DNA of 64,000 bases from Prevotellaceae bacterium UBA3849 (GTDB lineage: Bacteria; Bacteroidota; Bacteroidia; Bacteroidales; Bacteroidaceae). Positions 39,601 to 63,015 of this stretch are shown piece by piece. The translations under genes were made by a program, and so were the position numbers. The notes below the pieces were generated by a model, which saw nothing but the letters and a program-made list of their open reading frames with translations, had not been told where the DNA came from and did no database searches. The stretch covers positions 17,906 to 81,905 of the forward strand of contig DGHL01000040.1 of the NCBI GenBank assembly GCA_002392645.1, in the 5' to 3' direction. Position 1 is the first letter of the stretch. Each line of letters opens with the position of its first letter.

Positions 39601-41591
39601 TCATGCTCGCTGTGACCAATTATGTCGGTGAGCCAATTACATGGAAGGGCGACAAGGGAACAGCCTGGGACCTTGATGAGACGGCAAACTTCGTAAAGAC
39701 AGAGACTGGCGAGGAAGCTGTATTCTATACAGGTTCAGATGTGACGTTCAATGATAATGCCACAAACTACAATGTTGAGATAAAAGGCAACGTGTCACCT
39801 GCGTCTGTCACATTCCTTAACAAAAAGCAGTACACTGTTTCTGGCGATAAGATTATAGGAACACCGGATTTGTTGAAAGACAGCGTCGGCGTGGTTTATC
39901 TTAATAATGTCAACGACATGGGTAACACTACCATCAGCGGTGGTACCCTCTGTGTAGCAAGTCTTGCAAACTCTACAGGTACGGAGATGGGTTCACTTGG
40001 CACTATCGACAAGACCATCACGCTTACAGGTGGTGGCGCTCTTTCTCCAACAGCCTCATTCACGAGTGAGCAGAAAATCATCTGCTATAAAGACAATGGT
40101 GTGATTGATGTTCCGACAGGTGTGACCTTCACACAGGCGGCAAATATAGCAACCTCACAGAACGGTGCCCTCACTAAGGCTGGTGCTGGTACGTTGAATA
40201 TGACGGGTAATCTTACTGCCAATGGAATAACAGTAAAAGCCGGTACATACGACTATACAGGTAATGCCAATAGCAAGACTATAACTTTGCAGGGTAATTC
40301 TAAACTCTCAGGTCAAGGTGTCCGCACAAGTCCTATCGTCGTAGATGCAGGCGCTAACGTAACATGGGATTTGCCGGGAAGTAACTATACGGATATTGCT
40401 TGTGCGGTGTCTGGTTCTGGTACAATTACCGTAAATACCACCAATGCCTATAATCGTACTCGTATTACTGGTAACTGGAGCGGTTTTACAGGAACAGTGA
40501 AATACACCAATACCTCACAAGTGATGCCTATAAAGACTAACTGGAATCTTGCAAAAGGCACACTTGACATAGGAGAAAAAGCGTATGTAGCTGCGGTAGG
40601 TAATACTTGTACCATAGGTAAACTTACTGGTAAGGGTGTGTTAGAGCAGCCGGTGGCTGACTTTAACAGCCAGGCAGCTCCATCGGGAATTAATACATGG
40701 CGTGTGGGTAACAGCTCTGATGCACTTGGTGACTTCCAATTTAACGGCTATCTTTATGATGCAGGCGGTACAACTAAATCAAACTTTGAGAAGATAGGTA
40801 CATGCACCATGACGGTCTCAACCGCATGGCAGAACTCAGGAACGGTTAAGATATCAGAAGGAACACTGCGCTTCAAGTCTAAAGTCACGTTGGGTACAGG
40901 TGCCTTGACTGTGGCAGAGGGAGCAGTTCTCGCAGGTTTGTCTAACACGGCGAGCGGTACGTCAAAGAATTCTCCTATCACCAATAGCAGCATAACTGTA
41001 AACGGAACCTTGTGGCCGTCAAGTCAGGAAACCTCTGTTTCTTCCAGTTATTTATGTATAGGCGATAAGACTGTTGACTTCTCATCTACGGGCAGGCTTA
41101 AAGTTGGATTGAAGAAATGTTCTACGGGTTCTGTTGTGTATAACACATGTCTTATCGGTGATGGTAGTAAGGCAACGATAAACTTTGCCGATGGTGTCAC
41201 TATCGAAGCCTATGCTCCGGACTATACACCGACATTCGTCAATGAAGAGGTAACAGACTCATTCAAGGTACTGGTTGACATTCCTAACGTCAATGTCGCA
41301 GGCAAGCTGAACTACGAACTGCCTACGCTTCCTATGCATTACTATTGGAAGAACCGTTGGGACAGCACGCTTTTTGCAAAGACAGGATGCCTCTATGTAG
41401 GATATATAGAGCTGATTGGCGACGCTAACAGGGATGACCAGGTCACCATGGCAGATGCGAACATGGTAGTAAACTACTTCCTCGGTGGTACGACTGAAGG
41501 CATCAGCCTGCCGCATGCTGATGTCAATGGCGACGGACAGATTACCATGGCAGATGCCAATGCCATAGTGAATATATTCCTGGGACAGTAG
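36687..41591 (+). CDS. Multimodular rhamnogalacturonan lyase: PL11 (YesW-like) domain, autotransporter-associated beta-strand repeats and C-terminal type-I dockerin
   Basis: LDRG.VA...SWR, RGIYTR, GQGYH...ADVDWDGRDEI, GHGDAQH, GDILGDWRHE and GYNQPPH (PL11); LVKQGDGALTL / LTKAGAGTL repeats; duplicated GDxNxDxxVTMADAN at 41418-41591. Confidence 0.88.
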   Translation: MTKSKQIFMLLLLLLLSVTVSAQRVIDNLDRGIVAVKTTGGVFISWRIQSDEYYDVTYNLYRDGSLVAENLKTSNYTDASGSTSSKYTVAAVVNGVVLDQSQPVAVWAQDYMEITPQHPSELKATYVPNDACAADVDGDGEVELLMKYNNSQEMSNSFPVNGWYNEHTLFEVTKLDGSVLWWVNCGPNMGDFQNNEQNIVGYDWDQDGSAEVLMRLEEGSSIHMSDGTVYTIGADGKNGTSWTNYRSQGWVSPAGATVAVETGVSSTATVSCSADWVTLSNVNGVVYATASQNGDPTVNGSGRSTTITIVDNGVPKKLGFGQNYYRDGKEISSQYFTHYGKEFLVYCNGKTGQVYDIIDFPCARFESGESDLNAAWGDGYGHRSSKFFYGAPYLDGRNPSIFVGRGIYTRHKFVALDVDKNTHKLSERWRWMNNQKGSPWYGQGYHNYGIADVDWDGRDEIVFGGLVIDDNGMGLSTAGFGHGDAQHHGDFNPYIHGHEGWFCNEEAPNNHYRDLTTAKLYYRLEGGSDDGRAIAGNFCNTVPGAFASSARDSDNPISLVTNEHVAGYSTNGMAQNFNCYWDGDLCEETYNADGTNYDDKPGAIYKYNQGKIKTFEGSLANNWTKATPCFMGDILGDWRHEFVMRTADNKIRIYTTTIETPWRIYSMWYDHQQRNAMVWQMCGYNQPPHTSYFLGEMEGITAAPPALTMKGRTEIANGGTISNDGASVITCETNDMTVSVADGATPYIYIDNTPSLVSGSAPSEATAKEYPITYTYYTHTLTGGAFAGDMRLVKQGDGALTLPDVVQTYTGQTDVWAGTLNFNGTLQNSRLWLNRFAELNSDNGTFAKGIQAEYAAIIRPGGKEAKASTITTDSLILDFGSVVELDIYSNGLKADSIKANVLKIEKKDWTNGPQYLTPVFRINAHPAAGAAAIADGIYCLGTIGEVKGNLGDIIIENLPNQKAVLSLEEGKLMLAVTNYVGEPITWKGDKGTAWDLDETANFVKTETGEEAVFYTGSDVTFNDNATNYNVEIKGNVSPASVTFLNKKQYTVSGDKIIGTPDLLKDSVGVVYLNNVNDMGNTTISGGTLCVASLANSTGTEMGSLGTIDKTITLTGGGALSPTASFTSEQKIICYKDNGVIDVPTGVTFTQAANIATSQNGALTKAGAGTLNMTGNLTANGITVKAGTYDYTGNANSKTITLQGNSKLSGQGVRTSPIVVDAGANVTWDLPGSNYTDIACAVSGSGTITVNTTNAYNRTRITGNWSGFTGTVKYTNTSQVMPIKTNWNLAKGTLDIGEKAYVAAVGNTCTIGKLTGKGVLEQPVADFNSQAAPSGINTWRVGNSSDALGDFQFNGYLYDAGGTTKSNFEKIGTCTMTVSTAWQNSGTVKISEGTLRFKSKVTLGTGALTVAEGAVLAGLSNTASGTSKNSPITNSSITVNGTLWPSSQETSVSSSYLCIGDKTVDFSSTGRLKVGLKKCSTGSVVYNTCLIGDGSKATINFADGVTIEAYAPDYTPTFVNEEVTDSFKVLVDIPNVNVAGKLNYELPTLPMHYYWKNRWDSTLFAKTGCLYVGYIELIGDANRDDQVTMADANMVVNYFLGGTTEGISLPHADVNGDGQITMADANAIVNIFLGQ

Positions 41592-41717
41592 CTTCGCTTC
41601 GCTCAGAGTGAAAAGTGAAAAGTGAAAAATACCATGCGGAAGGCCTCACATCCAGCCTCACCTGTGAGGGAGGGGGAAGTGAGTGAAAAGTGAATAATTC
41701 CCATGTGGAGGATAGAC

Positions 41718-41754
41718 ATCCCCTCCCTGCATATAATGTGTAGGGAGGGGATTT
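41718..41754 (+). terminator. Hairpin terminator / REP-like palindrome after the PL11 gene
   Basis: ATCCCCTCCCTGCATAT...GTGTAGGGAGGGGATTT; preceded by GAAAAGT heptamers and a REP-like copy at 41655-41674. Confidence 0.65.
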
Positions 41755-42150: not shown

Positions 42151-42562
42151 GATACAGTTTTAAACCCCTCTATTGAAAATCAATAAGTTACAACTCACTG
42201 AGAATGTCGATGAAACCGACTGACCATAAACTTTTTCAAAAAACAGCCCTTCATTTCGACTTAACGAAGGCATCAGAATAGGACAAAAACAACATTCTCG
42301 TATTCATGGACATGATTCCAAGTTTATTCTCATCGTGTGTTTTCGTCGATAAAGCAGACAAGACCTTGTAGAAATTGAAAATCTTGAAATTTTTATCGAA
42401 AATATTATTATTTTTCTCAAAACATTTGGTAGATTCAAAAAAAACATTTAACTTTGCAGAAAAATAAAAGGAGAGATATACATAATATAATAAACACAAT
42501 ATACAAAATCAACGAACATAGACAAATCACTTAAATTATAATTAACTAACACCAAAACAATT

Positions 42563-45412
42563 ATGAAGAAACATTTACTTCTATTATTTACGGCTGCAAT
42601 GACGTCATTGTCAAGCTTTGCGCTTGGTCTCAATGATTTCATATACACGCAGCATGGACGTTTCCAGATTATGGATGCGACGAATAACTTTACGGGTAGC
42701 ATCCAGGGATTTAGTGGCTTCAGTGCTATTTATAACGATGGTAGTACAAAAGTTGATTCTTTGTTCGTTACGGGACAGGATGCTACTGTGGGAGACTATT
42801 TCCAGTCTAATATAAATGTACCTTATACAGAGGGTCTTATAAGCAAACTCGATTTGCCAGCTGGTAATTATATCGTTAGCTTCAAACTTAAGTCTGGTGC
42901 TATTACATCTGCAATACCTTCTGGCGGAACATTCGCTGGTATGAACCGTATTCGTCTCGTTAGCGTAGCAAAAGATGCTACGGTTACTTCTGCTAATGTT
43001 GATGAGATAGTAGCAAGCTATGAGTCAGGACTTACCATAGGTACAGAGTGGGCTACCTATGGCTTTGATGTAGAAGTAGATCCTTCAAATGACTATTATC
43101 TGGAGTTCCTTGGTATGCAGAGTCAAGTGGCTGTAGCTGATATTCAGATCCAGGAGGCAATGCAAGTTGCTGATTTACGTAAGAGGGATTATATGATCAA
43201 CTTTATCAATGCGTATAAATCAGTAAAGCAAATAACAGAAGAACAGGATAAGGAATTTGGACTCACGGAGAATTTAGAGGTACTCGAGGGTATTAATGAG
43301 ACATCAAGTCAGGAGGAATTAGATGAGGTAATCGTTTCCTTGGATGAAGCCATTTTAGGAATGCGTGGTTTAATGGATTCTTGGCTGTCAGATAAAGATA
43401 ATAGTACCTTCCCTGCAGGCTTTACTTGTAATAACAAATCAACGGATTGTGGCATCTGGACTACGAATCCTTCTGGTCGTTTGCATAAGGATACATGGAA
43501 TGGTAAGACATATCCGGAGTTCCCACATTTCCAGCATAGCAATGGCTGGGATAGAACTGGTGTGATGGAGACAAAGGAACTACAAGAGTTCCCCGCAGGT
43601 TCTTATGTATTCTCAGTTGACGTAAGGGCGTTAGTTCGTCTTCGTGAAGGTAAGCAGAACTGGACTCCTGATTTGGGAATGGATTGTTTCCAGACGACCC
43701 TCTATGTTGTAAATGAGGATGGTGATACTGTTGCTGTAACAGGGCCTTATGCTATTCGTGCAAGTGAGTTTACTCCTAATTACCTTGTATTTAAGTTGGA
43801 TCAGCCTTTAAACTGTAAGGTTGGTATAAAGACTGAGGGTATTAAGGAAGGAGGAACTAATATCTATCCTGGAAGTTACGGTGGTACCATAATGTTTAAG
43901 GATGCAGCACTCTACTATGTGTCAGCTTTGCCATATACTAAGAAGCAGCTTGACTACATTAAGGCTGTTCAGAAACAGATAACGACTGGACGTGATTATA
44001 TTACAAGCAATACAGAGGGCATTAATAATGCAGAGAAGTATTGGGGTAAGGCTGAGCTTCAGGCATGTCTTGATACTGCAGTAGCTAAAGTTGAGGCTTA
44101 TGAAGCTATTAAGACAGATACAGCTTACATTATTAATACTTATAATGAATATGTAGGTGAAGGAGGTGAATGGGCTTCTTCAACTTCTTCGGAATCTGGT
44201 ATTCTCGAGTATGATATCTATCAGAATGTTGTAAAGGACCTTATCGCTGCTAATAGGAAATTCAATGATTTGAACGATACCTTGAACAGTTTGGCTGAGG
44301 CTATCGTAGCAGCTAAGGAATTTAGAAATCTTCGTGTATATGCAGAATCTACTACAAATGAAGGTTTGGATAACGAGATTACTAAAGCTGAAAACTTGTT
44401 GACACAATTGCAGAATGATGCATACAGTGAGGAAAATGTTGATTTGTTGCTTGCTGAAATAGATGCTCTCACTGCTAAAAAGAGCGAGTTTGCTGCTGGT
44501 ATCCCAACAGAAAAGATAGAGGTTATTGCTGATATCGACTTTGAACAGCCAGCCGTTGGTCTGGAAGGCGAAGCTACTTCTGGTGCTGTAACTATTGCCG
44601 GTGCTGTCGGTCAGATGGAGATTGATAACTTTAGTACTGTTGCTGCTGATGGTGTATTCCAGAAAGGATATGACAAGAATTTTGAAACTTTCCATGAGGG
44701 TATGCTTCGCGTAGGTAATGGTGCAGGTATTGTTAATATTGATGAGGATAAGCGTGTAACAGGTTCAAATATCCTCCGTGCTTCATTTGATATGCACTTC
44801 GGTAAGTTGAACAATCGTAATTCAGGTTTCGATTTCCTCGACGAGAATAATGAGCGTGTGGCAGAGGTTTATTTCGATTTCTATAATGGCAATATGAAAA
44901 ATGGTGGTCGTGATGACTTCGGATTGAACTTCTCTTACATTCCTTCATACGGTGCACAGGGTGTTGACAATGATTCTATCATAGGTTCTGATGATTATAA
45001 GACTCACTTTGAGATAATCATTGATTATGGCACATCTAAGATGTACTGTTCTACAACATCTAAGAGCGGTTCTCAGAAAACAGTAGAGGTAGCTCTTCCT
45101 AACAAGGAGCCAATAGCTATGTTCCGAGTTAAGTCTAACTATAGTTCAAACCCAGAGCGTCGCTCTTGGTTCGATAACCTGAAGATTGAGAAGATTACTG
45201 CTGCTGAGGTCGTTTCTGTAACGGGTGATACTAACGGTGACGGTGTGGTTACTATGGCTGATGCTAACGCTATCGTTAACTACTTCCTCGCAGAGGATAA
45301 GACAACCATCACAAACTTCGATGTTACTGCCGCTGACGTAAATGGTGACGGCGATATCACAATGGCTGATGCCAACGCTGTAGTTAATATCTTCCTCGGA
45401 AGTGCTGAATAA
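42563..45412 (+). CDS. Secreted multidomain protein (beta-sandwich/CBM-like modules with helical linkers) with C-terminal type-I dockerin
   Basis: Signal peptide; TAACTTTG promoter at about 42449; C-terminus GDTNGDGVVTMADANAIVNYFL...ADVNGDGDITMADANAVVNIFLG (45224-45412); no catalytic motif recognised. Confidence 0.75.
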   Translation: MKKHLLLLFTAAMTSLSSFALGLNDFIYTQHGRFQIMDATNNFTGSIQGFSGFSAIYNDGSTKVDSLFVTGQDATVGDYFQSNINVPYTEGLISKLDLPAGNYIVSFKLKSGAITSAIPSGGTFAGMNRIRLVSVAKDATVTSANVDEIVASYESGLTIGTEWATYGFDVEVDPSNDYYLEFLGMQSQVAVADIQIQEAMQVADLRKRDYMINFINAYKSVKQITEEQDKEFGLTENLEVLEGINETSSQEELDEVIVSLDEAILGMRGLMDSWLSDKDNSTFPAGFTCNNKSTDCGIWTTNPSGRLHKDTWNGKTYPEFPHFQHSNGWDRTGVMETKELQEFPAGSYVFSVDVRALVRLREGKQNWTPDLGMDCFQTTLYVVNEDGDTVAVTGPYAIRASEFTPNYLVFKLDQPLNCKVGIKTEGIKEGGTNIYPGSYGGTIMFKDAALYYVSALPYTKKQLDYIKAVQKQITTGRDYITSNTEGINNAEKYWGKAELQACLDTAVAKVEAYEAIKTDTAYIINTYNEYVGEGGEWASSTSSESGILEYDIYQNVVKDLIAANRKFNDLNDTLNSLAEAIVAAKEFRNLRVYAESTTNEGLDNEITKAENLLTQLQNDAYSEENVDLLLAEIDALTAKKSEFAAGIPTEKIEVIADIDFEQPAVGLEGEATSGAVTIAGAVGQMEIDNFSTVAADGVFQKGYDKNFETFHEGMLRVGNGAGIVNIDEDKRVTGSNILRASFDMHFGKLNNRNSGFDFLDENNERVAEVYFDFYNGNMKNGGRDDFGLNFSYIPSYGAQGVDNDSIIGSDDYKTHFEIIIDYGTSKMYCSTTSKSGSQKTVEVALPNKEPIAMFRVKSNYSSNPERRSWFDNLKIEKITAAEVVSVTGDTNGDGVVTMADANAIVNYFLAEDKTTITNFDVTAADVNGDGDITMADANAVVNIFLGSAE

Positions 45413-45424
45413 ATTGAATACATA

Positions 45425-45468
45425 CTTTGTGACAACTAAGTTCCTTAATGAACTTGGTTGCCACAAGG
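45425..45468 (+). other. Intergenic stem-loop without a T-tract
   Basis: CTTTGTGACAACTAAGTTC-cttaat-GAACTTGGTTGCCACAAGG. Confidence 0.6.
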
Positions 45469-45523
45469 TTAAATAAGAAAGAAAACTCAAATTAATATTA
45501 ATTTAAAACAAAATCTTAAGATT

Positions 45524-46330
45524 ATGAAAAAATTATTTACACTTATCGCTTGTTGCTTTAGTGCAGTATGTATTTCTGCTGCTCCGAAGTCAGATATCTC
45601 AAGCTACAAAAATTATTTGTATATTCCTGATGACACTAAGTTCGTTGCAGGTACAGAAACTACAGTAGAGATAAAACTTAGACAGACAGGATGGATACAG
45701 GGTGCTCATTGTGAGATAGTATTCCCAGAGGGATGGACAGTTAAAGCTCCTACTCTTGTAAAGAAGTCTTTGTTCCAGGTATTGACTGATCCTGAGGATG
45801 AAGAATCAACTATGGAATTGTGTGCAGCTTCAGGTCTTGCAGCTAAAGGTACTGTTGCCACTGCAGCTACAACTGGTCTTGGAACTGCTGGTGGTTATGA
45901 TGTAAATGATCCTACGAAGTATTACAATTTTGGAAAAGAAGATGCTTCTCATTCTTACTATAACTATAAAGAAGGTGAGGATATAGTACTTTTCAAGGTT
46001 AAAGTTACTCCTGCTGCTGCGTCAGGTACTCCTGCAACAATCACGTTTACTGATTGCGAACTGTGTTTTAATGATCCAAACTATAAGACAAATCCTGATT
46101 TGAGTGACTATGCTTGGAATAACTATTGTAATCCAGCTATAACTGCTAAGGAAACAGGTGTTGAAAGATCTTTAGTTTTTGAGTTTGATGTAGAGGGTGC
46201 AACTGGCGTTGATGGCGTTTCTGAGGATGGCGCAGAGGCTGCTGCTCCTGCAAAGAAGATTGTTGATGGTCAGCTCGTAATCGAGACTGCTAACGGTACT
46301 TTCAACGCTGCTGGCGCACAGGTAAAGTAA
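45524..46330 (+). CDS. Putative single-cohesin protein with T9SS-like C-terminal sorting signal
   Basis: Signal peptide; cohesin-like strand pattern AGTETTVEIKL / IQGAHCEIVFPEG / GEDIVLFKVKV / AASGTPATITF; tail TGVDGV...KKIVDGQLVIETANGTFNAAGAQVK; follows two dockerin genes. Confidence 0.62.
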   Translation: MKKLFTLIACCFSAVCISAAPKSDISSYKNYLYIPDDTKFVAGTETTVEIKLRQTGWIQGAHCEIVFPEGWTVKAPTLVKKSLFQVLTDPEDEESTMELCAASGLAAKGTVATAATTGLGTAGGYDVNDPTKYYNFGKEDASHSYYNYKEGEDIVLFKVKVTPAAASGTPATITFTDCELCFNDPNYKTNPDLSDYAWNNYCNPAITAKETGVERSLVFEFDVEGATGVDGVSEDGAEAAAPAKKIVDGQLVIETANGTFNAAGAQVK

Positions 46331-46349: not shown

Positions 46350-46396
46350 AAAAAAAACTTCGCTTGAACATTCAAGCGAAGTTTTTTCGTTTTTTC
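46350..46396 (+). terminator. Rho-independent terminator after the cohesin-like gene
   Basis: AAAAAACTTCGCTTGAA-ca-TTCAAGCGAAGTTTTTT. Confidence 0.8.
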
Positions 46397-46459: not shown

Positions 46460-46720
46460 ATGGCAAGAAATATGAATACTATATCATTATCCCCCGAATT
46501 CTTCAGTGATTTGGGAGTGATAGCTCAGGACGAAACTCTGTTTGTTAAATTACAGAAGTATGTAAAAAAACTTATTTCCACAAAGGCAAAAGATGACAGT
46601 CTAATGACAAAAGACGAATTCTTTGCCAAACTTGAACGCTCAAGAAAGCAGATAGAAGAGGGAAATTATGTGAAGTTTTCCAATATACAGGAGTTTAATG
46701 AGTATTTTGGTGTTAAATGA
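46460..46720 (+). CDS. Putative antitoxin of a YoeB/Txe module (about 86 aa; start re-assigned to ATG 46460)
   Basis: Overlaps the toxin start (ATGA); C-terminus EFFAKLERSRKQIEEG is typical of RelE-superfamily antitoxins. The upstream extension to 46364 runs through a terminator and a promoter (TAATTTTG). Confidence 0.7.
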   Translation: MARNMNTISLSPEFFSDLGVIAQDETLFVKLQKYVKKLISTKAKDDSLMTKDEFFAKLERSRKQIEEGNYVKFSNIQEFNEYFGVK

Positions 46721-46983
46721 AGTACGAAGTGTTGTTTACCAAAGAGGCAGAAAAGGATATAAACCGATTGAGAGAGTCTGAACCTGCTGCTTTTAAAAAA
46801 CTTGTAAAACTGGTAGCAGAACTATATGACCATCCTATGACAGGAACTGGTAAGCCAGAGATGCTGAAAGGTAATCGTATTGGGCAGTGGAGTCGCAGGA
46901 TAACTAAGAAGCATCGGCTGGTATACGAGATAAATGGTGATAAGATCTATGTCTATGTACTTTCAGCCTATGGGCATTATTAG
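46717..46983 (+). CDS. yoeB: Txe/YoeB family ribosome-dependent mRNase toxin
   Basis: GTGKPE.LK, WSRRIT.KHRLVY and C-terminal GHY motifs. Confidence 0.93.
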   Translation: MKYEVLFTKEAEKDINRLRESEPAAFKKLVKLVAELYDHPMTGTGKPEMLKGNRIGQWSRRITKKHRLVYEINGDKIYVYVLSAYGHY

Positions 46984-47215: not shown

Positions 47216-50095
47216 ATGAAAAAACTCATTTTGTATGCATCTCTTGTTTGCATTGGAATGGCATCTTGCTCAAAAGACTATGTAGTCGATGAGGAGAACC
47301 TGCCATCATGGCTTGGTGAGAGCATTTACGGAGAGTTGAAGAGTCCGAAGACGCTTTCAGGTTCGTTTAATACGTATCTGAGGCTTATTGACGACATGGG
47401 GTATGGTGAAGTCCTTGGTCATACCGGTAGTAAGACCATCTTCCCTGCGAACGATGCGGCGTTTGAAGCCTATTTCAAAGATGGCAACAACCGCTATGGA
47501 GCAAGGAGCTATGAAGACCTTACCTACAGTCAGAAGGCTCAGCTGCTCTATTCGTCAATGATTGACAATGCCATTCTTATTGGTAACATCTCTTCTGAGC
47601 AGAACTCAAGTGGTGAACTGTTGCAGGGTAAGGCTGTGAAGCACTCTACCAACCTGCAGCTGACTAATACCATTGAACCACTGTATTCTCAGAATTTCCC
47701 TAAGAACAATGCTTCGTTCACACGTTTCATTGACAAGGGAGCTATCCTGACCGTCAACGATAACAGCGTGGCACCGATGGTACACTTCACCGGTGAGTAT
47801 ATGCTTAATAATGGCATGACGGTCGTAGGAGACAATAACGACTTCTCTGTACTTACTGGAAATGAGTACACTGACGGAGATGCTTACATCTTCAATCATA
47901 AGGTGATAACAAGCAATGTAACCTGTCAGAATGGTTACATACACCAGCTTGACGGCGTTCTTGAGCCACCGGGCAATATGGCACAGGTGCTGAGAGAGGG
48001 TACGGAGTCAGGTTCTGGTACCAGTCTTTTCTCACGCATGTTGGATTATTATTGCGCACCATTCAATGATGTTACCACAAAGAACAACTATAATGCGTGG
48101 GCTATTGAGAATGGTGAGGCAACAATCGAGAATGTATATGCCATACGTTACTATAGCCAGATGTCAAATGGTGCAAAGAAATTGGATCGCTATACTGACG
48201 AGGATGGCAAGATAAGCGACGTGCATACAGAGTCACAGTTGCTTAACTTCGATCCAGGATGGAACCAGTATAAGCCAAATGCTACAAGTTCGGCTAATGC
48301 AGAGATTGCTGCAGTCCTTGCACCAACAGACGATGCCCTGTGGGATTATTTCAAGGAGAACGGTGGCGGTGGTGCATACATCATCAAGAACCTCGGTAAC
48401 CCAGAGTTGGAGAATACGCGCGAGAACCTCGGTGAGCATTTCGACGCTATTTATAACAGCGACCCTTCTGTGTTTACCAACATGCTGAACAACCTGCTGA
48501 AGTCTAACTTCTCAAAGACCGTTCCAAGCAAGTTCTCTACGGTGCAGAACGATGCATTCGAGTTCATGGGCGTGAAACTCGACGACGTTCACATGAAGGA
48601 TGACGGCAAGTATGATGTCAAGATTGCCAACAACGGCGTTATATACAAGATGGACAAGTTCTTTGCTCCACAGCTCTATAACTCAGTACTCGGTCCGGCT
48701 TCCGTATATCAGAACATGCGCAGCATGGGACAGATGCTCAATGACCATGCCGTTACTGCCGGTGAGGTGCCTGCACTTGGCGTGAACATGTACTACTACC
48801 TCATGTCTATGAAGTCAAAGTATGCAGTGTTCGTACCAGAAGATAACAGTACATTCGTGTATATCGACCCAACGTCAATATATGACGCCGACAACTATGG
48901 CACAAAGGCGCTGCGCTTCCGTTTCAACACCGCAGCAACTGATTCAAAGTTCAATGTAATGGTGCAGAAGGGCCTGTTCGAGAACGGCGTGTTCACCGAA
49001 CTTGGAGAATACACTGAGGAGAATATCGAGAAAGGTACATACTCTACCCAGATACAGGACATGCTGAACTATCATGTAGTAGTGCTCAACAGCAACGAGG
49101 ACGGACTCAGCGGAAATCACTACTACAAGACGAAGCATGGTGGTGCAATCTACGTTCCAGACGGTTTCGCACGTAATGGAAAGACAGTTCAGGGTGGTGC
49201 CCAGATTGAAGGCAAGGCTCCTGCTGCCAAGGTGCTTACACAGTATAGTAGGACTGGACGCACCGATGCAGATCCAGAGGCAAATATCGAGAATGGTACT
49301 TGCTACCTCATCAGCACTCCTATACAGCCTACTACTACAAGTACATATAAGGTACTCTCATCTAAGTTTGAGAAGTTCTATGACTTCATGAGCGGTTTTG
49401 AAGGAAATACCGATATCCTGAAGTTTGCAGGACTCAGTGATGAGGAAAACGAGAAGACTCACAAGTCAGAGCAGACAAACTATATGATGTTTGCTGCTAC
49501 AAACTTAAATCCTATACGTGAAGACCTGTACGATGCACGTATGCGCATGCTCGGTGCATATAACTATACGGTATATGCTCCTACAGACGATGCAATGGAC
49601 AAGGCTTATGCAGCTGGTCTGCCTACATGGGATGAGCTGGAGGCGTTGTTCAATCAGTGGGATAATCAGGAAACAACGAATCCTTCTGGCTATGCTGCTG
49701 CATCTGCAGAGGCACGTAAGAAGATTGACGTAATGCGTCAGTTCGTGTTCTACCACATTCAGAACAACTCTGTCTTTGCTGACAACACTGTTGCCAGCGG
49801 TTCTTACCAGACATTCTGCACTGATGACCTCGGCATTGCACAGACACTGGGTGTCAGCGGTGGTAACGGCACGCTGAACGTGCGCGACAGGGCTGGTAAT
49901 ACGGTTAGCGTGACGTATGGAAGCGCTAATGCCAATATCTTGGCACGCGACATCGTCAGGACATCTACGGGTGCTATCGACTATTCTTCATTCGTTACCA
50001 TACATGGTATCGACACACCTCTCTGCTTCAGCACGACCGGTAGGTATGACAGCAAATGGAATAATGCCGGTTCTGCGAAAAAAGCAGTGCGCTAA
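47216..50095 (+). CDS. Fasciclin-domain surface lipoprotein (PUL surface glycan-binding-like)
   Basis: Lipobox MASC; repeated T.FP.ND.A / T.YAPTDDA and NG.IH.LD / NGVIY motifs of FAS1. Confidence 0.8.
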   Translation: MKKLILYASLVCIGMASCSKDYVVDEENLPSWLGESIYGELKSPKTLSGSFNTYLRLIDDMGYGEVLGHTGSKTIFPANDAAFEAYFKDGNNRYGARSYEDLTYSQKAQLLYSSMIDNAILIGNISSEQNSSGELLQGKAVKHSTNLQLTNTIEPLYSQNFPKNNASFTRFIDKGAILTVNDNSVAPMVHFTGEYMLNNGMTVVGDNNDFSVLTGNEYTDGDAYIFNHKVITSNVTCQNGYIHQLDGVLEPPGNMAQVLREGTESGSGTSLFSRMLDYYCAPFNDVTTKNNYNAWAIENGEATIENVYAIRYYSQMSNGAKKLDRYTDEDGKISDVHTESQLLNFDPGWNQYKPNATSSANAEIAAVLAPTDDALWDYFKENGGGGAYIIKNLGNPELENTRENLGEHFDAIYNSDPSVFTNMLNNLLKSNFSKTVPSKFSTVQNDAFEFMGVKLDDVHMKDDGKYDVKIANNGVIYKMDKFFAPQLYNSVLGPASVYQNMRSMGQMLNDHAVTAGEVPALGVNMYYYLMSMKSKYAVFVPEDNSTFVYIDPTSIYDADNYGTKALRFRFNTAATDSKFNVMVQKGLFENGVFTELGEYTEENIEKGTYSTQIQDMLNYHVVVLNSNEDGLSGNHYYKTKHGGAIYVPDGFARNGKTVQGGAQIEGKAPAAKVLTQYSRTGRTDADPEANIENGTCYLISTPIQPTTTSTYKVLSSKFEKFYDFMSGFEGNTDILKFAGLSDEENEKTHKSEQTNYMMFAATNLNPIREDLYDARMRMLGAYNYTVYAPTDDAMDKAYAAGLPTWDELEALFNQWDNQETTNPSGYAAASAEARKKIDVMRQFVFYHIQNNSVFADNTVASGSYQTFCTDDLGIAQTLGVSGGNGTLNVRDRAGNTVSVTYGSANANILARDIVRTSTGAIDYSSFVTIHGIDTPLCFSTTGRYDSKWNNAGSAKKAVR

Positions 50096-50128
50096 CACTA
50101 TTTAATTTAAGTTTAATACAAAGAAGTC

Positions 50129-53100
50129 ATGAATATTATGTCAAAACAAAAGGTTCTACTGACATTCATACTCTTCGTCATAACACAGATGGTGATGGCG
50201 CAGGGAGTCGTCATATCAGGAACTGTTGAAGACGCAATGGGACCGGTCATGTTCGCAAACGTCACGGAGCGTGATGCTAATGACCGTATCATTAACGCTA
50301 CGCAGACAGATATGATGGGTAACTTCTCCATGGAAGTTAAGAATACAAAGAATATGCTCGTCGTGTCTTACGTAGGTAGCAAGACGTGGAAAAAGAAAAT
50401 AGGAAACGAAACGACTTTCGCTATAAAACTTGAGGATGAAAAGACAACACTTAATGAGGTGACCGTGCGTGGTCGCCGTGCTAATGCTGGTGGCTTGAAC
50501 ATCCAAAAGAAAGAGATTTCGGTGTCACAGCAGACTTTCAACCTCTCTGAGGTGGAAGGTATGGCGTTCACCTCTGCCGACGAGGCTCTGCAGGGTGAGA
50601 TTGCCGGTCTGGATATCGTAAGTAACTCCGGTAACCTCGGTTCCGGAACTACAATGCGTCTGCGTGGTGTTTCATCATTGTCTGGTAACTCTAACCCTCT
50701 CATCGTAGTTGATGATAAGATATTTGACTATAATGAGGGTGACATTGACTTCGAGAATGCTGATACCGAAGCTTTCTCTTCTCTGCTTGCTGTCAATGTG
50801 GATGATATTGAAAAAATTAACGTGCTCAAAGATGCTGCCGCTACGGCTATCTGGGGTTCACGTGGTGCCAACGGTGTCATAGAAATTACTACAAAGCGTG
50901 GTAAGCGTGGTAAGCCAAGGGTAAACCTCTCATATAAGTTCACAGGTACATGGATGCCTGCTGGATACCAGTTGCTTAACGGTGACCAGTACACCATGAT
51001 GCTTAAGGAAGAGTTCTATAACCCAACACAGAGTGCTGACGCTACCAAGAACATTGCCGAGATTAACTACGACAAGACTTGGCCGGAGTATAACTACTGG
51101 AACCGTAACACTGACTGGGTGGACGAGGTGAAGCAGTTCGGTGAGCAGCATGAGGCAAATGTCAACATTACCGGTGGTGGACAGAAGGCTACCTTCCGTA
51201 TCTCTGCTGGCTACAACCATCAGACTGGTACTATCATCAAGCAGCGTCTTGATCGTCTGACCACTCGTCTCGTACTCGACTATAATGTGTCAGACCGTAT
51301 CAAGTTCTCTACGAACTTCGCCTTGACATATACAGACAACCTGAAGAACTATACACTTGGTTCAAGCAAGAACGGTAACTCTAACAACAATATTCTCGCT
51401 ATGGCGCTCGCTATGGCTCCGAATATGTCTATCTACCGTAACAATGGTGAGTACTACCTGATGAATCCTGCCGGAAATGATGCAAAAGGACAGACACCTT
51501 ACACAGGTAACTACAGTTCTGAGAAAATGGGTTCAGTGTATAAGATTGGTAACCCTGTTGCCTATGCTAACTCTTCATGGCAGAAGGAGCAGACTTACAG
51601 CATCGTACCTGACTTCAACCTGAAGTATGAACTTCTCGGTATAGAGAGCAACCAGAGTCGTCTGACATTCGACGGTCGTGTATATTTCGACATCTATGCA
51701 TACTCACTGCCTACATATATGCCGGGTAGCCTGTCAAACGGAGACTACGATGCAGCGACATATAACTATGCAACCAACACTGAGAAGAACAACTTCAAGC
51801 TCGGTGCACGTGCACAGCTCGTCTTTACACCTTATTTCAAGAATGAGGACTTCAGTCTCACAATGCTTGGTCGTTATGAGTGTAACACAGGACGCTATTC
51901 TTATCAGTATGCTGCAAAGAGCCAGTTGCCAAATGGCTTGGAGACTATTGAGGCTCAGGCTAACAACCGTGATATGAGCAACTCTCTCTCAACAGTGAAG
52001 ACTGCATCTCAGAACTGGGTTTACAATGCACACTTCTCTTACAAGGAGCGTTACAACATCAGCTTCTCACTGCGTGGTGACTGTAGCTCTGGATTCGGTC
52101 CTGATAATCCTTGGTTCTATTCTCCTTCTGTTTCTGTACGTTATAACCTCAGTGACGAGAAGTTCTTCGAACCATTGCGTAAGGTCGTATCTATGTTCGG
52201 TATCCGTGGTTCATGGGGTATTTCTGGTAGTACAAGTGCAGGAGCTGCACAGTTCTACAACACCTATAAGCCATCTGCAGGTACGTATGGTACAGATGCA
52301 TACACTACTCTTGACGGTCTGAAGCTCACGACTCTCAAGCCACAGAAGCGTCAGGGTCTTAACCTCGGTTTCAACCTCGGTTTCCTGAATGATATAATCG
52401 AGATGGACCTTAATATATATAAGGAGAAGACTTCTGACCTTATAGTAAAGAATGCTCCAATACCTTCTACTACTGGTTACACAGTGGTAAGTTTTGCCAA
52501 CATCGGTAAGATTGAGAATAAGGGTTGGGAGCTTTCTATCAATGCAAATAAATTCCTGAAGGTAAAGAAATTCACTCTCTCTGCTTCTTTGAATATGGCA
52601 CAGAATGCCAACGAACTGCTTGAGATGAACAAGGACGTGCTCGCAGGATATAATACGAAGTTTGAGGATGTTTATACAAAGCGTGGCAATGCAGCACGTA
52701 TGAACAAGGTAGAGATAGGTGCTCCTCTGTGTTCTATCTATGGCTACCAGTCAAAGGGCGTATTCCAGTATTCTTATGAATACCTGACCAACTATAATAC
52801 AAAGATGAGACAGCAGAATGCCAACTGGACATCTGTTGACTTTGAGAATTGGATAAACGAGCAGTTGGCTGCCGGCAAGACATTCCCTGTCGCTACCGAT
52901 GCTAACGGTCATGTCATAATGACTAATAACGGAGAGCCACAGCATCTTGTTTACAGATATTACAATGGTACATCAGAGTACCAGTTCCAGGGTGGTGACG
53001 CTCATTATGAGGATATCAACCATGATGGTCAGATTAATGAGCTTGATATCGTTTACCTTGGTAACTCACTGCCAAAGCTTCAGGGTGGTTTCTCACTCAC

Positions 53101-53560
53101 TGCACAGTATGGCAACTGGAAGTTGATAGCACGTTTCACATATCGTTGGGGTAACAAGATCCTCAATGCTGCCCGTATGGGACTTGAGAGCATGTACGGT
53201 ACCGACAACCAGTGTGCTTCCGTGAACTACCGCTGGCGTAAGGATGGTGACGTGACAGAGCTGCCACGTGCGTTGTATAACGCTGGATATAACTATGAGG
53301 TCAGCTCACGTTTCGTAGAGGACGGAGCATTCCTCCGCTTCCAGAACCTGCAGGTTTCTTACAGCTTCCCTAAGAAGATGGTAAGGAAGTGGGGACTTAA
53401 TTCTCTCTCAGCTTATGTCACTATGAACAATCTCTTCTGTTGGACAAAATATACAGGTATTGACCCAGAGATTGCGGCTTCTACGTATGCACCAGCTATT
53501 GATACCTCTAATACGCCAAGAGCTAAGTCAGTAACCGCAAGTCTTAGCTTCGGATTCTGA
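50129..53560 (+). CDS. susC: SusC/RagA TonB-dependent transporter
   Basis: N-terminal carboxypeptidase-regulatory-like domain, plug motif KDAAATAIWGSRGANGVIEITTKRG, G..EN.G.E, and C-terminal Phe. Confidence 0.95.
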   Translation: MNIMSKQKVLLTFILFVITQMVMAQGVVISGTVEDAMGPVMFANVTERDANDRIINATQTDMMGNFSMEVKNTKNMLVVSYVGSKTWKKKIGNETTFAIKLEDEKTTLNEVTVRGRRANAGGLNIQKKEISVSQQTFNLSEVEGMAFTSADEALQGEIAGLDIVSNSGNLGSGTTMRLRGVSSLSGNSNPLIVVDDKIFDYNEGDIDFENADTEAFSSLLAVNVDDIEKINVLKDAAATAIWGSRGANGVIEITTKRGKRGKPRVNLSYKFTGTWMPAGYQLLNGDQYTMMLKEEFYNPTQSADATKNIAEINYDKTWPEYNYWNRNTDWVDEVKQFGEQHEANVNITGGGQKATFRISAGYNHQTGTIIKQRLDRLTTRLVLDYNVSDRIKFSTNFALTYTDNLKNYTLGSSKNGNSNNNILAMALAMAPNMSIYRNNGEYYLMNPAGNDAKGQTPYTGNYSSEKMGSVYKIGNPVAYANSSWQKEQTYSIVPDFNLKYELLGIESNQSRLTFDGRVYFDIYAYSLPTYMPGSLSNGDYDAATYNYATNTEKNNFKLGARAQLVFTPYFKNEDFSLTMLGRYECNTGRYSYQYAAKSQLPNGLETIEAQANNRDMSNSLSTVKTASQNWVYNAHFSYKERYNISFSLRGDCSSGFGPDNPWFYSPSVSVRYNLSDEKFFEPLRKVVSMFGIRGSWGISGSTSAGAAQFYNTYKPSAGTYGTDAYTTLDGLKLTTLKPQKRQGLNLGFNLGFLNDIIEMDLNIYKEKTSDLIVKNAPIPSTTGYTVVSFANIGKIENKGWELSINANKFLKVKKFTLSASLNMAQNANELLEMNKDVLAGYNTKFEDVYTKRGNAARMNKVEIGAPLCSIYGYQSKGVFQYSYEYLTNYNTKMRQQNANWTSVDFENWINEQLAAGKTFPVATDANGHVIMTNNGEPQHLVYRYYNGTSEYQFQGGDAHYEDINHDGQINELDIVYLGNSLPKLQGGFSLTAQYGNWKLIARFTYRWGNKILNAARMGLESMYGTDNQCASVNYRWRKDGDVTELPRALYNAGYNYEVSSRFVEDGAFLRFQNLQVSYSFPKKMVRKWGLNSLSAYVTMNNLFCWTKYTGIDPEIAASTYAPAIDTSNTPRAKSVTASLSFGF

Positions 53561-53608
53561 TAATGTGACACTAAAATACAACATATAATTGTAAAGAGAA
53601 AACATAAT

Positions 53609-55447
53609 ATGAAAAAAATATTATCAATAATAGCAGTCTGTCTCGGTATGGTGTCATGTGTGGATACTGTGATACTTCCTGATGATAAGATTGTGGACGA
53701 AGATTACTGGCAGACAAAATCAGATGTGTCAGGCGTCGTGGCTGCTGCATATAGCCAGTTGAAGTCGGAGGATCTGCAGCGTAATCTCATCGTATGGGGC
53801 GATTTCCGCTCTGATGAGCTGCAGCTTTCAAACTCAGTTTCGCTGACAAATACCACGGCGTATGTACAGGACCTTAATCAGGTATATTCGTTGAACATAC
53901 TTCCAAGCAACGCATTTACCAATTGGAATAACCTATATTCTGCCATCAACTATTGCAATCTCGTGATAGCCAAGGCAGAGGGAGTGGTTTCAATCGACCC
54001 TAATTATACATTAGGTGACTATAAGGCAGACATAGCAAAGGTTAAGGCCCTGCGCGCACTCTGTTATTTCTATCTGGTAAGAGTGTTCCGCGACGTACCA
54101 GTAAGCACAGAGGCTTATATGAATGACGGTCAGGAGCGTGAGATTGAGCAGAAAGCTCCTGCAGAGGTTCTTGAGATGTGTATCAGTGACCTTAAGGAGG
54201 TAGAGCCTGATGCACTGCTTTCTAACACCTATGGTGACTGGAGAGATAAGGGCTACATGACAAAGGATGCTATTCATGCCTTGTTGGCTGATATATATCT
54301 GTGGCGTGCTTCTGTAAATCAGATGGACAATCCTGCACAGGCAAAAGCTGACTACGAGGAGTGCGTGGCTTATTGCGACAAAATCATAGCTGCAAAGAAA
54401 AATGCTCACGTAATGTTGCGTGGCGAGCAGGAGAAAGACTACTATCTTGCTAACAGTGACGACTATTATGATGATGTGTTTGGTTCATCAACTGGTGTTA
54501 ATAGTAACGGTCGTACTATATTTGGTATGAATTCAGAAGAAAGTATATTTGAGATACAGTATCGCTATTATTCTTCTGTTAGTAACATACTTACCATGCA
54601 AGTTAACCCTGGCGTCTTGAAGATGTACTATAAGTTCAATGCTAATAACAATGGTGCTACCTCTTATTTCATGACGACAAGCAACTATGGCGTGTATAGT
54701 AGTAGTACCAGTGGTACGAATTTATTCAAGAATACTGATGACGTACGCCAGAATGAGTTTATCTTCGCAGCAAACAGCGGTCAGGAACAATACGCCGTAC
54801 GTAAGTTCATTGCCACTTCGTCTTGCAATAAGAAGGCTGAGACATCTGGACCGGATGTGAACAATGTACGTCCTAACTGGATATTGTATCGTCTTACTGA
54901 CATTATGCTGATGAAGGCAGAGGCATTGGTACAGCTCAACGAGTTGGCTAATCAGGATGCCGGTGACGGTGCAGAGGGAGACGAAGGCAATGAGGGTGAT
55001 GGTTCAGAGTCTGTAGATTATCTCCAGCAGGCATTCAACCTCGTTTATGCCGTTAATGTTCGTTCATTGCCAGATGGCTCTACGAATGTATTGAAATTTA
55101 ACGTATATAAGGACAGGATGGAGTCATTGGTACTTCAGGAGCGTGCCCGTGAGCTTTGCTTCGAGGGCAAGCGCTGGTTTGACCTTATGCGTTATAACTA
55201 TCGCCATGTATCAGGTGTACAATATGACAAGACTTTCGATCAGCAGGGAGGTAACTATGTAGCTAATTACAGTGAGATGCTTACGCTTGCCATGACGGCT
55301 AAGTATTCTTCTGTTGCGGCAATGGCAAGTAAGATGCCTACGGAGCCTTATCTCTATTGGCCTATTAATACAGGACAGATGGATGTGAACACAAAGTTGA
55401 AGCAGAACCCAGTATGGAAGGCTTCCGCATCATCTTCACGTAATTAA
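53609..55447 (+). CDS. susD: SusD/RagB lipoprotein
   Basis: Lipobox MVSC; Y.AIN.CN, LRALCYFYLVR.F.DVP, YRL.DI.LM.AEA, ERARELCFEGKRWFDL.R and QNP motifs. Confidence 0.95.
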   Translation: MKKILSIIAVCLGMVSCVDTVILPDDKIVDEDYWQTKSDVSGVVAAAYSQLKSEDLQRNLIVWGDFRSDELQLSNSVSLTNTTAYVQDLNQVYSLNILPSNAFTNWNNLYSAINYCNLVIAKAEGVVSIDPNYTLGDYKADIAKVKALRALCYFYLVRVFRDVPVSTEAYMNDGQEREIEQKAPAEVLEMCISDLKEVEPDALLSNTYGDWRDKGYMTKDAIHALLADIYLWRASVNQMDNPAQAKADYEECVAYCDKIIAAKKNAHVMLRGEQEKDYYLANSDDYYDDVFGSSTGVNSNGRTIFGMNSEESIFEIQYRYYSSVSNILTMQVNPGVLKMYYKFNANNNGATSYFMTTSNYGVYSSSTSGTNLFKNTDDVRQNEFIFAANSGQEQYAVRKFIATSSCNKKAETSGPDVNNVRPNWILYRLTDIMLMKAEALVQLNELANQDAGDGAEGDEGNEGDGSESVDYLQQAFNLVYAVNVRSLPDGSTNVLKFNVYKDRMESLVLQERARELCFEGKRWFDLMRYNYRHVSGVQYDKTFDQQGGNYVANYSEMLTLAMTAKYSSVAAMASKMPTEPYLYWPINTGQMDVNTKLKQNPVWKASASSSRN

Positions 55448-55482
55448 TAGATAATGTTTTTATTCTATTTAAACTTAAAATA

Positions 55483-57678: not shown

Positions 57679-57745
57679 TTAGTTAAACATATAAGTTGAA
57701 TAATTAGTAGTTCAAGTATATTAACCGTTTAAGAGAACGATTCTT

Positions 57746-59629
57746 ATGAAGTACAATAATAAAATAGGTATGATGATAGTAGCAGGCGGAATGCTTGCTG
57801 CTACCTCATGCTCCGATTTCTCAGACTACAATACTGCTCCAGATGACTTCGGTATGACTGGTGGCAAGACATTGTGGCAGAATATCAGTGAGATCAATAA
57901 TTTGTCAAAGTTCGCAGAGATTGTGGAGAAGGTAGGCTTCAAGTCTAATTTGGATGCTCCTACATTCTACACTTTGTTTGCACCGCAGGATGGTACTTAC
58001 AATGCCGACTCTGTATTACAGATATTGGAGTCAGGCCTGCCAGAGGACACTGCAATCGTGCTGAAGGAGTTCGTAAAACAGCATGTGGTACAGTTCAACC
58101 ATCCTCTCAACGCAGCATTAGAGGAGTCAACACTTTTGTCACTCAATGCTAAGACTCATGCCTTTTCACCATTGCATTATGGCGATGCTACTTTCACCAA
58201 CAATGTCAACATTCCTGCAAGTAACGGTGTGATACATATCACCAATGGTAATGAGGGCTTCTATACCAACATATACGAGTATCTTGACAAGATAGAAGGT
58301 TGCGACTTGTTCCGTGACTATGTCAAGAAGTATGACGAACAGTATATTGATGAGTCAAACTCAGTGATGGGTCCTATCGTAAATGGCGTACAGAGCTATG
58401 AGTACATAGAGTATGCTCACCGCAACTCTGTAATAAATGGCATATTACGTGCGCAGCTTGAGAATGAGGACAGTTTATACACTATGCTGTTCCCAAATGA
58501 CAAGGCATGGACCAACTCATATAACAGGATACACAAAGACTACAAGTATCTGAAGAAGATGAGTTACACAGACCTGACAGCTACGACGGTTGCCGGCGCT
58601 TCAATGAAGGTGACCGATGGTAAGGCTGATATTACGGTAACTTCAGATCCCGCTTACCTTACCGACTCATTGACAAAGAAAATGATGATTTCTGATCTGG
58701 CATTTTCACACGGCTATCCATGTAACGACGTACTGCTCTCTGGAGGTGGTACGAAGGTTGATAGTGTCTTCAGTACTACCAGAGACTTTTTGGTAAGTGC
58801 CAAGGACATAGAGGATCATACCTTGGAGAAATATCGTATGTCAAACGGTTTCGTAAGACTTACGGACTCTATACCATTCCAGCCATGGCAGACTTTTGAG
58901 CCTATTATTACAACCACCAGACGCGTACGTGTGTTGAATGGTGCAGGTGGTACGTTCTCAATTGCAAAGGAAAAATTCAAGAAGGGTGGCGAACGTGATA
59001 CTCTGTTTAAGTATGTCCCTGATTATTTCTATGATCGCATTCTTGGTGAGAAGAGTGGTGACTCAAAGTACTTCACGTTTACGACCACACAAAGTACCAC
59101 ACAGTCCTCAATACCAGAGTTGGATTTCGCTATAGCGAGAGAACAGGGTGATAAGTATATCAGTAACGTTCTTTCAACGACATATCATATATATGTGTTG
59201 ACTATTCCTAACCAGATATTGGATAATGTAGAAGAAGGCATAATCACTAAGCAGAAACCATACTATCTCAGTTTCTACCTTAACTATACCGACTCAACAG
59301 AGAGTGGTGACCCAGTGATAAAGCATCAGCAGCTGTTCCTTAGCGAGAATGCTGACCCATCATGGGGACCAAAGGAGGTAACAGAGAGTAAGGTTCGCCA
59401 CATCGTGACAGAGCCAGGCTATGCCCAGGTGATCGATCTTGGTGAGTTTACTTTCCCGGTATCATACTATGGTACGGAGGCTTGCCCAAGTCTTATGATG
59501 TGTCACACACAGAAGTTTAATACATCTACGAAGCGTAACTCGTATGAGCATGAGCTGCGTGTTGCTGGAGTCTATCTGGTTCCTGTAGAGGCAAACGATT
59601 ACTTCATTACAAAGTCAGATAAGGAATGA
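57746..59629 (+). CDS. Fasciclin-domain lipoprotein
   Basis: Lipobox ATSC; YTLFAP, ASNGVIH and YTMLFPNDKAW motifs. Confidence 0.78.
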   Translation: MKYNNKIGMMIVAGGMLAATSCSDFSDYNTAPDDFGMTGGKTLWQNISEINNLSKFAEIVEKVGFKSNLDAPTFYTLFAPQDGTYNADSVLQILESGLPEDTAIVLKEFVKQHVVQFNHPLNAALEESTLLSLNAKTHAFSPLHYGDATFTNNVNIPASNGVIHITNGNEGFYTNIYEYLDKIEGCDLFRDYVKKYDEQYIDESNSVMGPIVNGVQSYEYIEYAHRNSVINGILRAQLENEDSLYTMLFPNDKAWTNSYNRIHKDYKYLKKMSYTDLTATTVAGASMKVTDGKADITVTSDPAYLTDSLTKKMMISDLAFSHGYPCNDVLLSGGGTKVDSVFSTTRDFLVSAKDIEDHTLEKYRMSNGFVRLTDSIPFQPWQTFEPIITTTRRVRVLNGAGGTFSIAKEKFKKGGERDTLFKYVPDYFYDRILGEKSGDSKYFTFTTTQSTTQSSIPELDFAIAREQGDKYISNVLSTTYHIYVLTIPNQILDNVEEGIITKQKPYYLSFYLNYTDSTESGDPVIKHQQLFLSENADPSWGPKEVTESKVRHIVTEPGYAQVIDLGEFTFPVSYYGTEACPSLMMCHTQKFNTSTKRNSYEHELRVAGVYLVPVEANDYFITKSDKE

Positions 59630-59660
59630 AGATATTAACAAAGAATAACGAAGAATAGTT

Positions 59661-62999: not shown

Positions 63000-63015
63000 A
63001 CCAAAGATTTGCACA

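Follow-up and report, generated by a model that had tools for sequence, protein, structure and literature searches.

The window, a stretch of 64,000 nucleotides, lies in a 1.97-Mb assembly (56% complete) of a Prevotella-like bacterium of the ruminant gut. Relatives recovered by sequence bear the titles Prevotella or Prevotellaceae, and the stretch recurs in gut metagenomes and metatranscriptomes, sheep and bovine ones among them (19 runs from 10 studies; sequencing runs with a share of 0.00, n = 4, are left out). The gene order is GDSL esterase, PL11 lyase with a dockerin, 949-aa dockerin protein, 268-aa candidate, YoeB-type toxin–antitoxin pair, and fasciclin–SusC/SusD cluster (Table 1). The YoeB-type toxin, with an antitoxin-like ORF upstream, sits between the cohesin and fasciclin genes (46463–46983), in a region that differs in relatives. 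The cluster that follows (47216–63999) combines two SusC/SusD pairs with three genes of the fasciclin lipoprotein-like kind. Genome G017 has three homologous clusters and genome G024 has one, with no adjoining dockerin or cohesin gene, and the cluster is rejected as a part of the system described here.

Table 1. Features at the cohesin locus (positions counted from the first letter of the window)
Feature	Positions	Strand	Basis or remark
PL11 rhamnogalacturonan lyase with PATR repeats, dockerin at its end, 1634 aa	36687–41591	+	Pfam
Dockerin of the PL11 enzyme	41409–41588	+	PF00404
Terminator-like hairpin 3′ of the PL11 gene	41718–41752	+	
Secreted-type protein of no known family, dockerin at its end, 949 aa	42563–45412	+	PF00404
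Symmetric type I-like dockerin of the 949-aa protein, TMADAN motif twice	45215–45409	+	PF00404
Candidate single-cohesin protein with reordered short T9SS-type tail, 268 aa	45524–46330	+	Main finding
Predicted SpI signal peptide, about aa 1–19, no lipobox	45524–45580	+	Pattern search and inspection by eye
Exchangeable allele block, very divergent cohesin bodies in near-identical strains	45551–46225	+	Strain and contig comparison
Predicted cohesin-fold β-sandwich, aa 20–227	45581–46204	+	AF2, Foldseek, VIA
Tail of 41 aa after a T/GV sortase-like site	46205–46327	+	Profile and AF2
Terminator-like hairpin immediately 3′ of the cohesin gene	46352–46387	+	

No terminator-like hairpin separates the 949-aa gene from the cohesin gene, and the two together are bracketed by such hairpins. 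Both are covered by single contigs from the RNA libraries of two studies (42480–46197 and 42489–46179), which fits a predicted two-gene operon. A promoter scan stays at chance level (17 vs. 19.1). The 949-aa passenger is covered by RNA-library contigs from four studies. Just 3′ of the PL11 gene (41600–41700), short repeats (AGTGAAAA) and hairpins are present, and two RNA contigs fold back there.

The 1634-aa and 949-aa proteins both terminate in PF00404 dockerins (50.1 and 44.7 bits against a curated cut-off of 22.9), with 0–2 residues beyond. Judged by pattern search and by eye, both begin with what resembles an SpI signal peptide and lack a lipobox, and neither a model of the T9SS C-terminal domain (CTD) nor one of an autotransporter barrel matched them. 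The preliminary description had both proteins ending right after the dockerin, behind a signal peptide without lipobox and with neither CTD nor barrel, and only the cohesin-like protein bearing a secretion tail; all of this stands. The stop after the dockerin is repeated in independent assemblies (L124, L125, L126, L130, L134, and L135). The calcium loop and helix are duplicated, with symmetric repeats in 14 aligned copies, and the dockerins appear type I-like. Among close strains the passenger part of the 949-aa protein is very variable (in L125 it is at 34%, against 99% for the next fasciclin gene).

For the 268-aa protein we observed no match in Pfam (PF00963 included) or in NCBIfam, and a PF00963 search of the genome at E ≤ 1 returned nothing. 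In the Atlas, a cluster with 13% PF00963 comes up as a lead (0.87), and neither protein searched has a match at 0.9 or above. An AF2 model of the body, built from 18 homologs (mean pLDDT 61), has a jelly-roll β-sandwich of cohesin topology. With that model, rows 1–13 are all cohesins in Foldseek (best E 5.5e-5) as in VIA (48,161 chains; best Z 11.1, rmsd 3.1 over 129 aa), where the first non-cohesin match comes at Z 9.1. Identity to the solved cohesins is 8–19%. The body is thus predicted to have a cohesin fold and is assigned to no cohesin type; what had been called cohesin-like from the letters is not visible by sequence and reappears at the level of the predicted fold. Longer fused forms of the same cohesin subfamily number 0 among 3713 candidates of 470–2000 aa, which is weak evidence.

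The protein ends in ...EGAT/GVDGVSEDGAEAAAPAKKIVDGQLVIETANGTFNAAGAQVK, that is, with 41 residues from the T/GV site at T227/G228. The tail carries the motifs KKIV-DG, QLVI, and then FNAAG-AQVK, an order that we read as E-like, D-like, and B-like. According to the available text of PMC11969387, short CTDs of Prevotella intermedia have 40–55 residues, are cut at PT/GI, and form one three-stranded sheet with motifs B, D, and E; cleavage by PorU and linkage to surface polysaccharide are shown there. An AF2 model of the candidate tail (44 aa, pLDDT 85) is a three-strand meander (strands 19–23, 26–31, and 34–37), in which the reordered motifs would keep their spatial positions. Fold searches with this model return generic β-meander matches, none at E ≤ 0.001 (best Z 3.1). 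A profile made from seven other tails of the genome finds the candidate tail at E 6e-16 among 2362 C-termini; the classic-tail profile reaches only E 0.16. TIGR04183 (type A T9SS CTD, threshold 23 bits) matches neither the candidate tail nor seven other reordered tails. The reported likeness to Bacteroidales T9SS-type tails therefore holds by profile, as a reordered short CTD, and drew no score from the TIGR04183 HMM.

Among the 43 CTD-ending frames of the genome, 34 have the classic order and nine the reordered one (46205–46327 in the window and frames on contigs C14, C30, C41, C71, C78, C87, C92, and C107). The tail profile matches 212 of the 7993 clusters scored, pectate lyases, CBM77 proteins, and pectin esterases among them. 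In the 125 stored tail proteins, the tail is always at the extreme C-terminus, a cleavage-type motif lies 38–44 aa from the end in 105, a signal-like start is present in 108, and a dockerin in none. One ortholog family bears either a classic short CTD or the reordered tail (62–69% identity over about 305 aa). The tail is probably a reordered variant of the short Prevotella CTD: it shares the length, the T/GV site, the terminal position, and the predicted three-stranded sheet, and not the B-D-E order.

Dockerins are present in 19 of the 15,328 six-frame segments of the genome, and a CTD in none of these 19. Sixteen of the frames end at most three residues after the dockerin, two reach assembly gaps, and one has the dockerin internally. 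No lipobox was seen in the dockerin ORFs (0/18) or in the candidate, the signal peptides being judged by eye. The symmetric TMADAN motif occurs in 18 of the 19 frames. Sixteen passengers were scanned, five of them with DUF285/BspA LRR and others with PL1, GH11, M6, and PKD/InlB domains, to which PL11 is added. Judged from these domains, the dockerin cargo looks like typical T9SS cargo; in P. intermedia the common T9SS cargo comprises LRR, DUF285, pectin lyases, and proteases (PMC11969387, available text). A Pfam scan of 18 dockerin proteins found no cellulase. Three cohesin frames of one domain each occur in the assembly, namely the candidate, a second cohesin-CTD gene, and an internal domain; no multi-cohesin scaffoldin was found in this incomplete assembly. 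The second cohesin-CTD gene lies directly 3′ of the gene on contig C40 that bears the sole dockerin of a different type, and this arrangement suggests a second specificity in the same cell. The pair (C40:3025–5254; L035, L193) has counterparts in L151, L188, L221, and L233, where a dockerin-stop gene and a cohesin-X-CTD gene are likewise paired and the dockerin is of a different type. Tiny dockerin ORFs (frames of about 100–150 aa) are seen at L022, L034, L036, L042, L045, L046, and L057; the C98 frame, which lacks a start codon ahead of its dockerin, is possibly a fragment. At L039, L041, L048, L053, L060, and L068, and on C107 of this genome (20255–22054), a TMADAN-like dockerin is followed by a 200–235-aa Lcl-like domain without CTD.

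In related genomes, the PF00404 matches number 37, 28, and 51. The genome with 51 (G045) has two adaptor loci; at L234, L237, L241, and L243 of that genome, two cohesin gene copies occur, and the contig ends cut both within the body. The three-gene module implied at first thus gives way to a genome-wide system, with 19 dockerin proteins here and, in a relative, as many as 51 PF00404 matches. In G003, 28 of the 30 dockerins checked are TMADAN-like, none of these being followed by a CTD, and the single chain with dockerin, cohesin, and CTD bears a different dockerin. Fused chains of cargo, dockerin, cohesin, and CTD are found in G003, G005, G015, G017, G043, G048, and G109. A survey of 250 genomes of the genus (no more than 24 or 11 candidates per genome were scored) gives at least six genomes with TMADAN-like dockerins, at least six with a cohesin-profile match, and at least three with both. 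As for the other three TMADAN genomes, G128 and G109 have a cohesin-CTD gene and in G259 the cohesin gene is cut by the locus end. In the other three genomes with a cohesin-profile match, that match comes after a dockerin-stop gene. In G042, with 21 PF00404 matches, five of six dockerins checked are terminal without CTD, a cohesin–dockerin gene lies at a contig edge, and no cohesin-CTD gene was found. In G010, G020, and G031, CTD-less dockerin proteins occur, with no cohesin match. The narrow profiles A1 and A2 failed on the cohesins of G017, which a broader profile recovered, so absences from narrow profiles are not trusted. In the Bacteroides thetaiotaomicron control, cohesin and dockerin matches are present, with neither SprA nor GldM. 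Small cohesin–dockerin proteins (200–260 aa; L183, L185, L177, L226, L231, L232, and L240), which resemble adaptor scaffoldins, often have a dockerin gene on one side and a cohesin-CTD gene on the other. At L189, L195, L206, L223, and L224, large genes stand in tandem arrays in which a dockerin-(cohesin)-CTD chain precedes a cohesin-first gene, and these could chain end to end.

Fifteen distinct loci display both cargos, PL11 and 949-aa. Where a cohesin gene is present, the cargo ends are dockerin/dockerin at four loci, CTD/dockerin at three, and dockerin/CTD at five. The sole CTD/CTD locus (L116) has no cohesin gene, and two dockerin/CTD loci stop before any cohesin gene appears. Cohesin presence at these loci is partly selected, since they were fetched with tail patterns. 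In PL11 orthologs (76–79% identity across about 1300 residues), the C-terminus is a long CTD-like tail (15.7, 16.9, and 25.5 bits with TIGR04183), and the 949-aa orthologs with a CTD have a tail nearly identical to that of the cohesin. There are at least three dockerin/CTD label changes in the tree of the 949-aa protein (15 rows, quick tree) and two in that of PL11 (11 rows); L024 and L142/L143 show a further swap (45% over the full length). In run X2, a relative's contig connects 45190 with 46244 (short matches), the cargo being fused straight to the tail; the block of dockerin, stop, signal, and cohesin therefore sits between a cargo and its tail. Recombination of the passengers could yield the same swap pattern, and would still show a passenger functional with either end. 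The orthologs thus support the view that the dockerin may stand in for the CTD.

Gene adjacency points the same way. Genes that pair an N-terminal cohesin with a CTD number 53 across all fetched loci and fall into 27 clusters at 90% identity. A CTD-less dockerin gene is directly upstream in 21 of the 27; among the remaining six, one is at an edge, one follows a CTD gene (with the dockerin two genes up), one follows a chain with both dockerin and CTD, and three follow other genes. Outside the family of the candidate, a dockerin-stop gene is upstream in 12 of 16 clusters, and when the four from dockerin-centred loci are taken away (cohesin searches alone) in eight of 12, or about four of eight families. 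The background is below 2% of genes ending in a dockerin (this rate and the family grouping are our own estimates). Dockerin-stop genes adjoin cohesin-CTD genes far more often than by chance. The preliminary description had put forward the dockerin as an indirect export or anchoring tag. The absence of a CTD from all 19 dockerin frames, the repeated switching on orthologous cargos, and the 21/27 adjacency argue for such a replacement of the export and anchor tag.

SprA, GldM, and PorP are present in the genome, with K/L/N-like genes flanking by position only. In this assembly (56% complete) we found neither PorU nor PorV; both are present and adjoining in 10 of the 10 relatives checked, and we therefore read the gap as missing assembly. 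The presence of a T9SS, on which the proposal depended, is in this way confirmed. PorP is single-copy in 5/5 genomes, so no expanded carrier of the type B kind is seen. For PorV, each of 10 genomes gives one full-score and one weak PorV-like match, whatever the dockerin count. In the available text of PMC10994853, SprA and PorV engage only the CTD, through a plastic pocket, with no specific binding of the passenger, and the PorV–substrate complex is pulled out by energy input. A partner tightly bound to such a passenger could therefore follow.

The system is probably one of cohesin–dockerin surface anchoring coupled to the T9SS, and no cellulosome, with an export step that we infer. The cohesin is likely the surface anchor of the dockerin cargo. 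Cargo and cohesin would reach the periplasm by Sec, as their signal peptides suggest. The calcium-loaded dockerin would bind the cohesin there, which the fold, the gene adjacency, and the fused forms make plausible. PorV would then grip the reordered short CTD of the cohesin in SprA and extract the non-covalent complex, and PorU, by analogy with P. intermedia, would cleave the cohesin at T227/G228 and couple it to surface polysaccharide. A single adaptor gene could in this manner carry many pectin enzymes out of the cell, along with a xylanase, a protease, and LRR proteins, and display them. We give a probability of about 0.5 to this reading, in which a predicted one-socket cohesin binds CTD-less dockerin proteins, piggy-backs them through SprA and the T9SS, and anchors them at the surface. 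In its general form, a hitch-hiker route of rumen Prevotella in which dozens of CTD-less dockerin proteins pass the T9SS in tow of a small cohesin, with exchangeable alleles and a rewired short CTD, that then displays them, it is held tentatively, at a little under even odds. The load is considerable, with one adaptor gene for 18 TMADAN-type cargos here and more in relatives. We count against piggy-back export the divergence of the alleles, the non-canonical motif order, the TIGR04183 miss, the genomes G042, G010, G020, and G031, and the B. thetaiotaomicron control.

The adjacency and swap data fit equally well a reading in which the tail exports and anchors the cohesin only, and the dockerin proteins cross the outer membrane alone and are captured outside, either because PorV or some other carrier recognises the dockerin as a new class of CTD, or by release in vesicles. 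One adaptor per export event would then no longer be needed, the CTD pocket is plastic and hydrophobic (PMC10994853, available text), and the four genomes in which no cohesin-CTD gene was found would be accommodated. Against this stand the constant equipment, with no extra carrier (one PorP in 5/5 genomes and an even PorV count in 10), and the predicted co-transcription of cohesin and cargo, which would meet first in the periplasm. The dockerin fold is helical, unlike the β-sheet CTDs. We consider separate crossing rather unlikely.

The body of the cohesin is exchanged as a block between strains. Downstream of the cohesin body, the DNA of L126, L134, and L135 matches the window at 94–99%, and that of L134 does so upstream as well, at 96% over 9.8 kb; none of the three aligns across the body itself. 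The bodies among such strains have 23–42% identity (L134 and L135 share one allele), with tails at 78–95%, dockerins at 81–87%, and a fixed dockerin motif. In contigs from three DNA runs (two studies), 45551–46225 is swapped for 561 other letters, which link 45550 to 46226, and contigs from two RNA runs branch at 45550. The block is swapped in L125, L126, L130, L134, and L135, and a single sample can hold different alleles. Such exchange fits a surface-exposed protein under selection. Divergent bodies facing a fixed dockerin are odd, in these strains with flanking DNA at 96–99% identity, for a tight cognate pair, and one may ask how binding outlasts strong diversifying selection.

The cohesin-fold protein could accordingly be a variable surface protein, with the TMADAN dockerins binding another partner (the product of a gene missing from the assembly, or other species' cohesins) or acting as calcium-stabilised end caps. 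The extreme exchange of bodies against a fixed dockerin speaks for this, as do the low identity to solved cohesins, the incompleteness of the genome, and the dockerin and cohesin modules in the Bacteroides control without T9SS genes. It is improbable in view of the dockerin-stop genes that precede cohesin-CTD genes outside the family of the candidate and in cohesin searches alone, and of the fused dockerin–cohesin–CTD chains. The upstream 949-aa gene is itself highly variable, and variability therefore fits surface exposure. An unrelated partner would also leave the export of CTD-less cargo without explanation. That the complex forms and stays in the periplasm, as the preliminary description allowed, is very improbable: the missing TIGR04183 match and a motif order unlike the B-D-E of proven short CTDs (PMC11969387, available text) would agree with a tail that is no working T9SS signal, but orthologs use the tail and classic short CTDs interchangeably, and it has the cleavage-type motif at the expected distance in most proteins, is predicted as the same three-stranded sheet, ends pectate lyases, CBM77 proteins, and pectin esterases, and is conserved (66–95%) where the body diverges (23–36%).

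Dockerins in rumen Prevotella have been reported, with a role not identified in the available texts (PMC6487960, PMC6071333, and PMC7480376); they gain here a candidate receptor and a candidate export route. If piggy-back export is true, the T9SS moves non-covalent complexes, and counts of T9SS secretomes are too low, since current models overlook both the dockerin cargo and the reordered tails. A 60-aa tag and one adaptor would then make a modular surface-display tool for Bacteroidota. The hitch-hiker route would, if true, be the first T9SS piggy-back system, and the reordered tails a third Prevotella CTD class missed by standard models. In the open literature searched, we found no report of T9SS piggy-back export, of dockerin–CTD interchange, or of the reordered tail.

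Among known systems, the anchoring cohesins of Firmicutes are close in architecture. The structures 2zf9, 2bm3, and 3ul4 are, as we take it from their titles, the cohesins of Ruminococcus flavefaciens ScaE and of Clostridium thermocellum SdbA and OlpA. ScaE, SdbA, and OlpA are single-cohesin anchoring proteins of Firmicutes cellulosomes. In common with the candidate, they have one cohesin (in the candidate, a predicted fold) with a surface anchoring signal, and partners with a duplicated C-terminal dockerin. The Firmicutes anchors use LPXTG or SLH, whereas the candidate uses a T9SS-type tail; and its host is diderm, so that the dockerin partners, unlike those of Firmicutes, must cross an outer membrane. 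Neither a multi-cohesin scaffoldin nor a dockerin-bearing cellulase of the cellulosome kind was found here, and the identity to solved cohesins is low. A standalone R. flavefaciens cohesin (PDB title 4n2o) has reportedly been proposed as a shuttle.

In Ca. Stygibacter (Cloacimonadota), enzymes with C-terminal dockerins and a CTD-bearing cohesin protein occur together and surface attachment is proposed, by prediction only, in the available text of PMC8542988. The scaffoldin there has 3,755 aa and many cohesins, in contrast to the 268 aa and single cohesin of the candidate, and that text gives neither an export route for the dockerin enzymes nor dockerin–CTD swaps. In Chlorobium chlorochromatii, a dockerin-ending gene likewise lies upstream of a gene with an N-terminal cohesin (Cag_2037/Cag_2038), and a surface tether is proposed; according to the available part of the preprint (bioRxiv 10.64898/2026.03.19.712371), this is a single pair of giant proteins with a T1SS substrate. 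P. intermedia's short CTDs share with the candidate the length (40–55 aa vs. 41), the T/G-I/V motif, the predicted three-stranded sheet, and the cargo types, and differ in their motifs B, D, and E, the E-like, D-like, B-like order being without description in the available text of PMC11969387. The type B T9SS CTD with PorP/SprF carriers is also an alternative C-terminal tag with a dedicated partner; that partner is an outer-membrane barrel (PMC10994853, available text), whereas here it would be a soluble T9SS cargo, with no PorP expansion. A likeness in mechanism is offered by Tat hydrogenases and peroxisomal import, in which, in the available text of PMC9251779, a signal-less protein bound to a signal-bearing partner crosses the membrane through a folded-protein translocase, whereas the route proposed here would have a modular tag and a single generic adaptor for many unrelated cargos.
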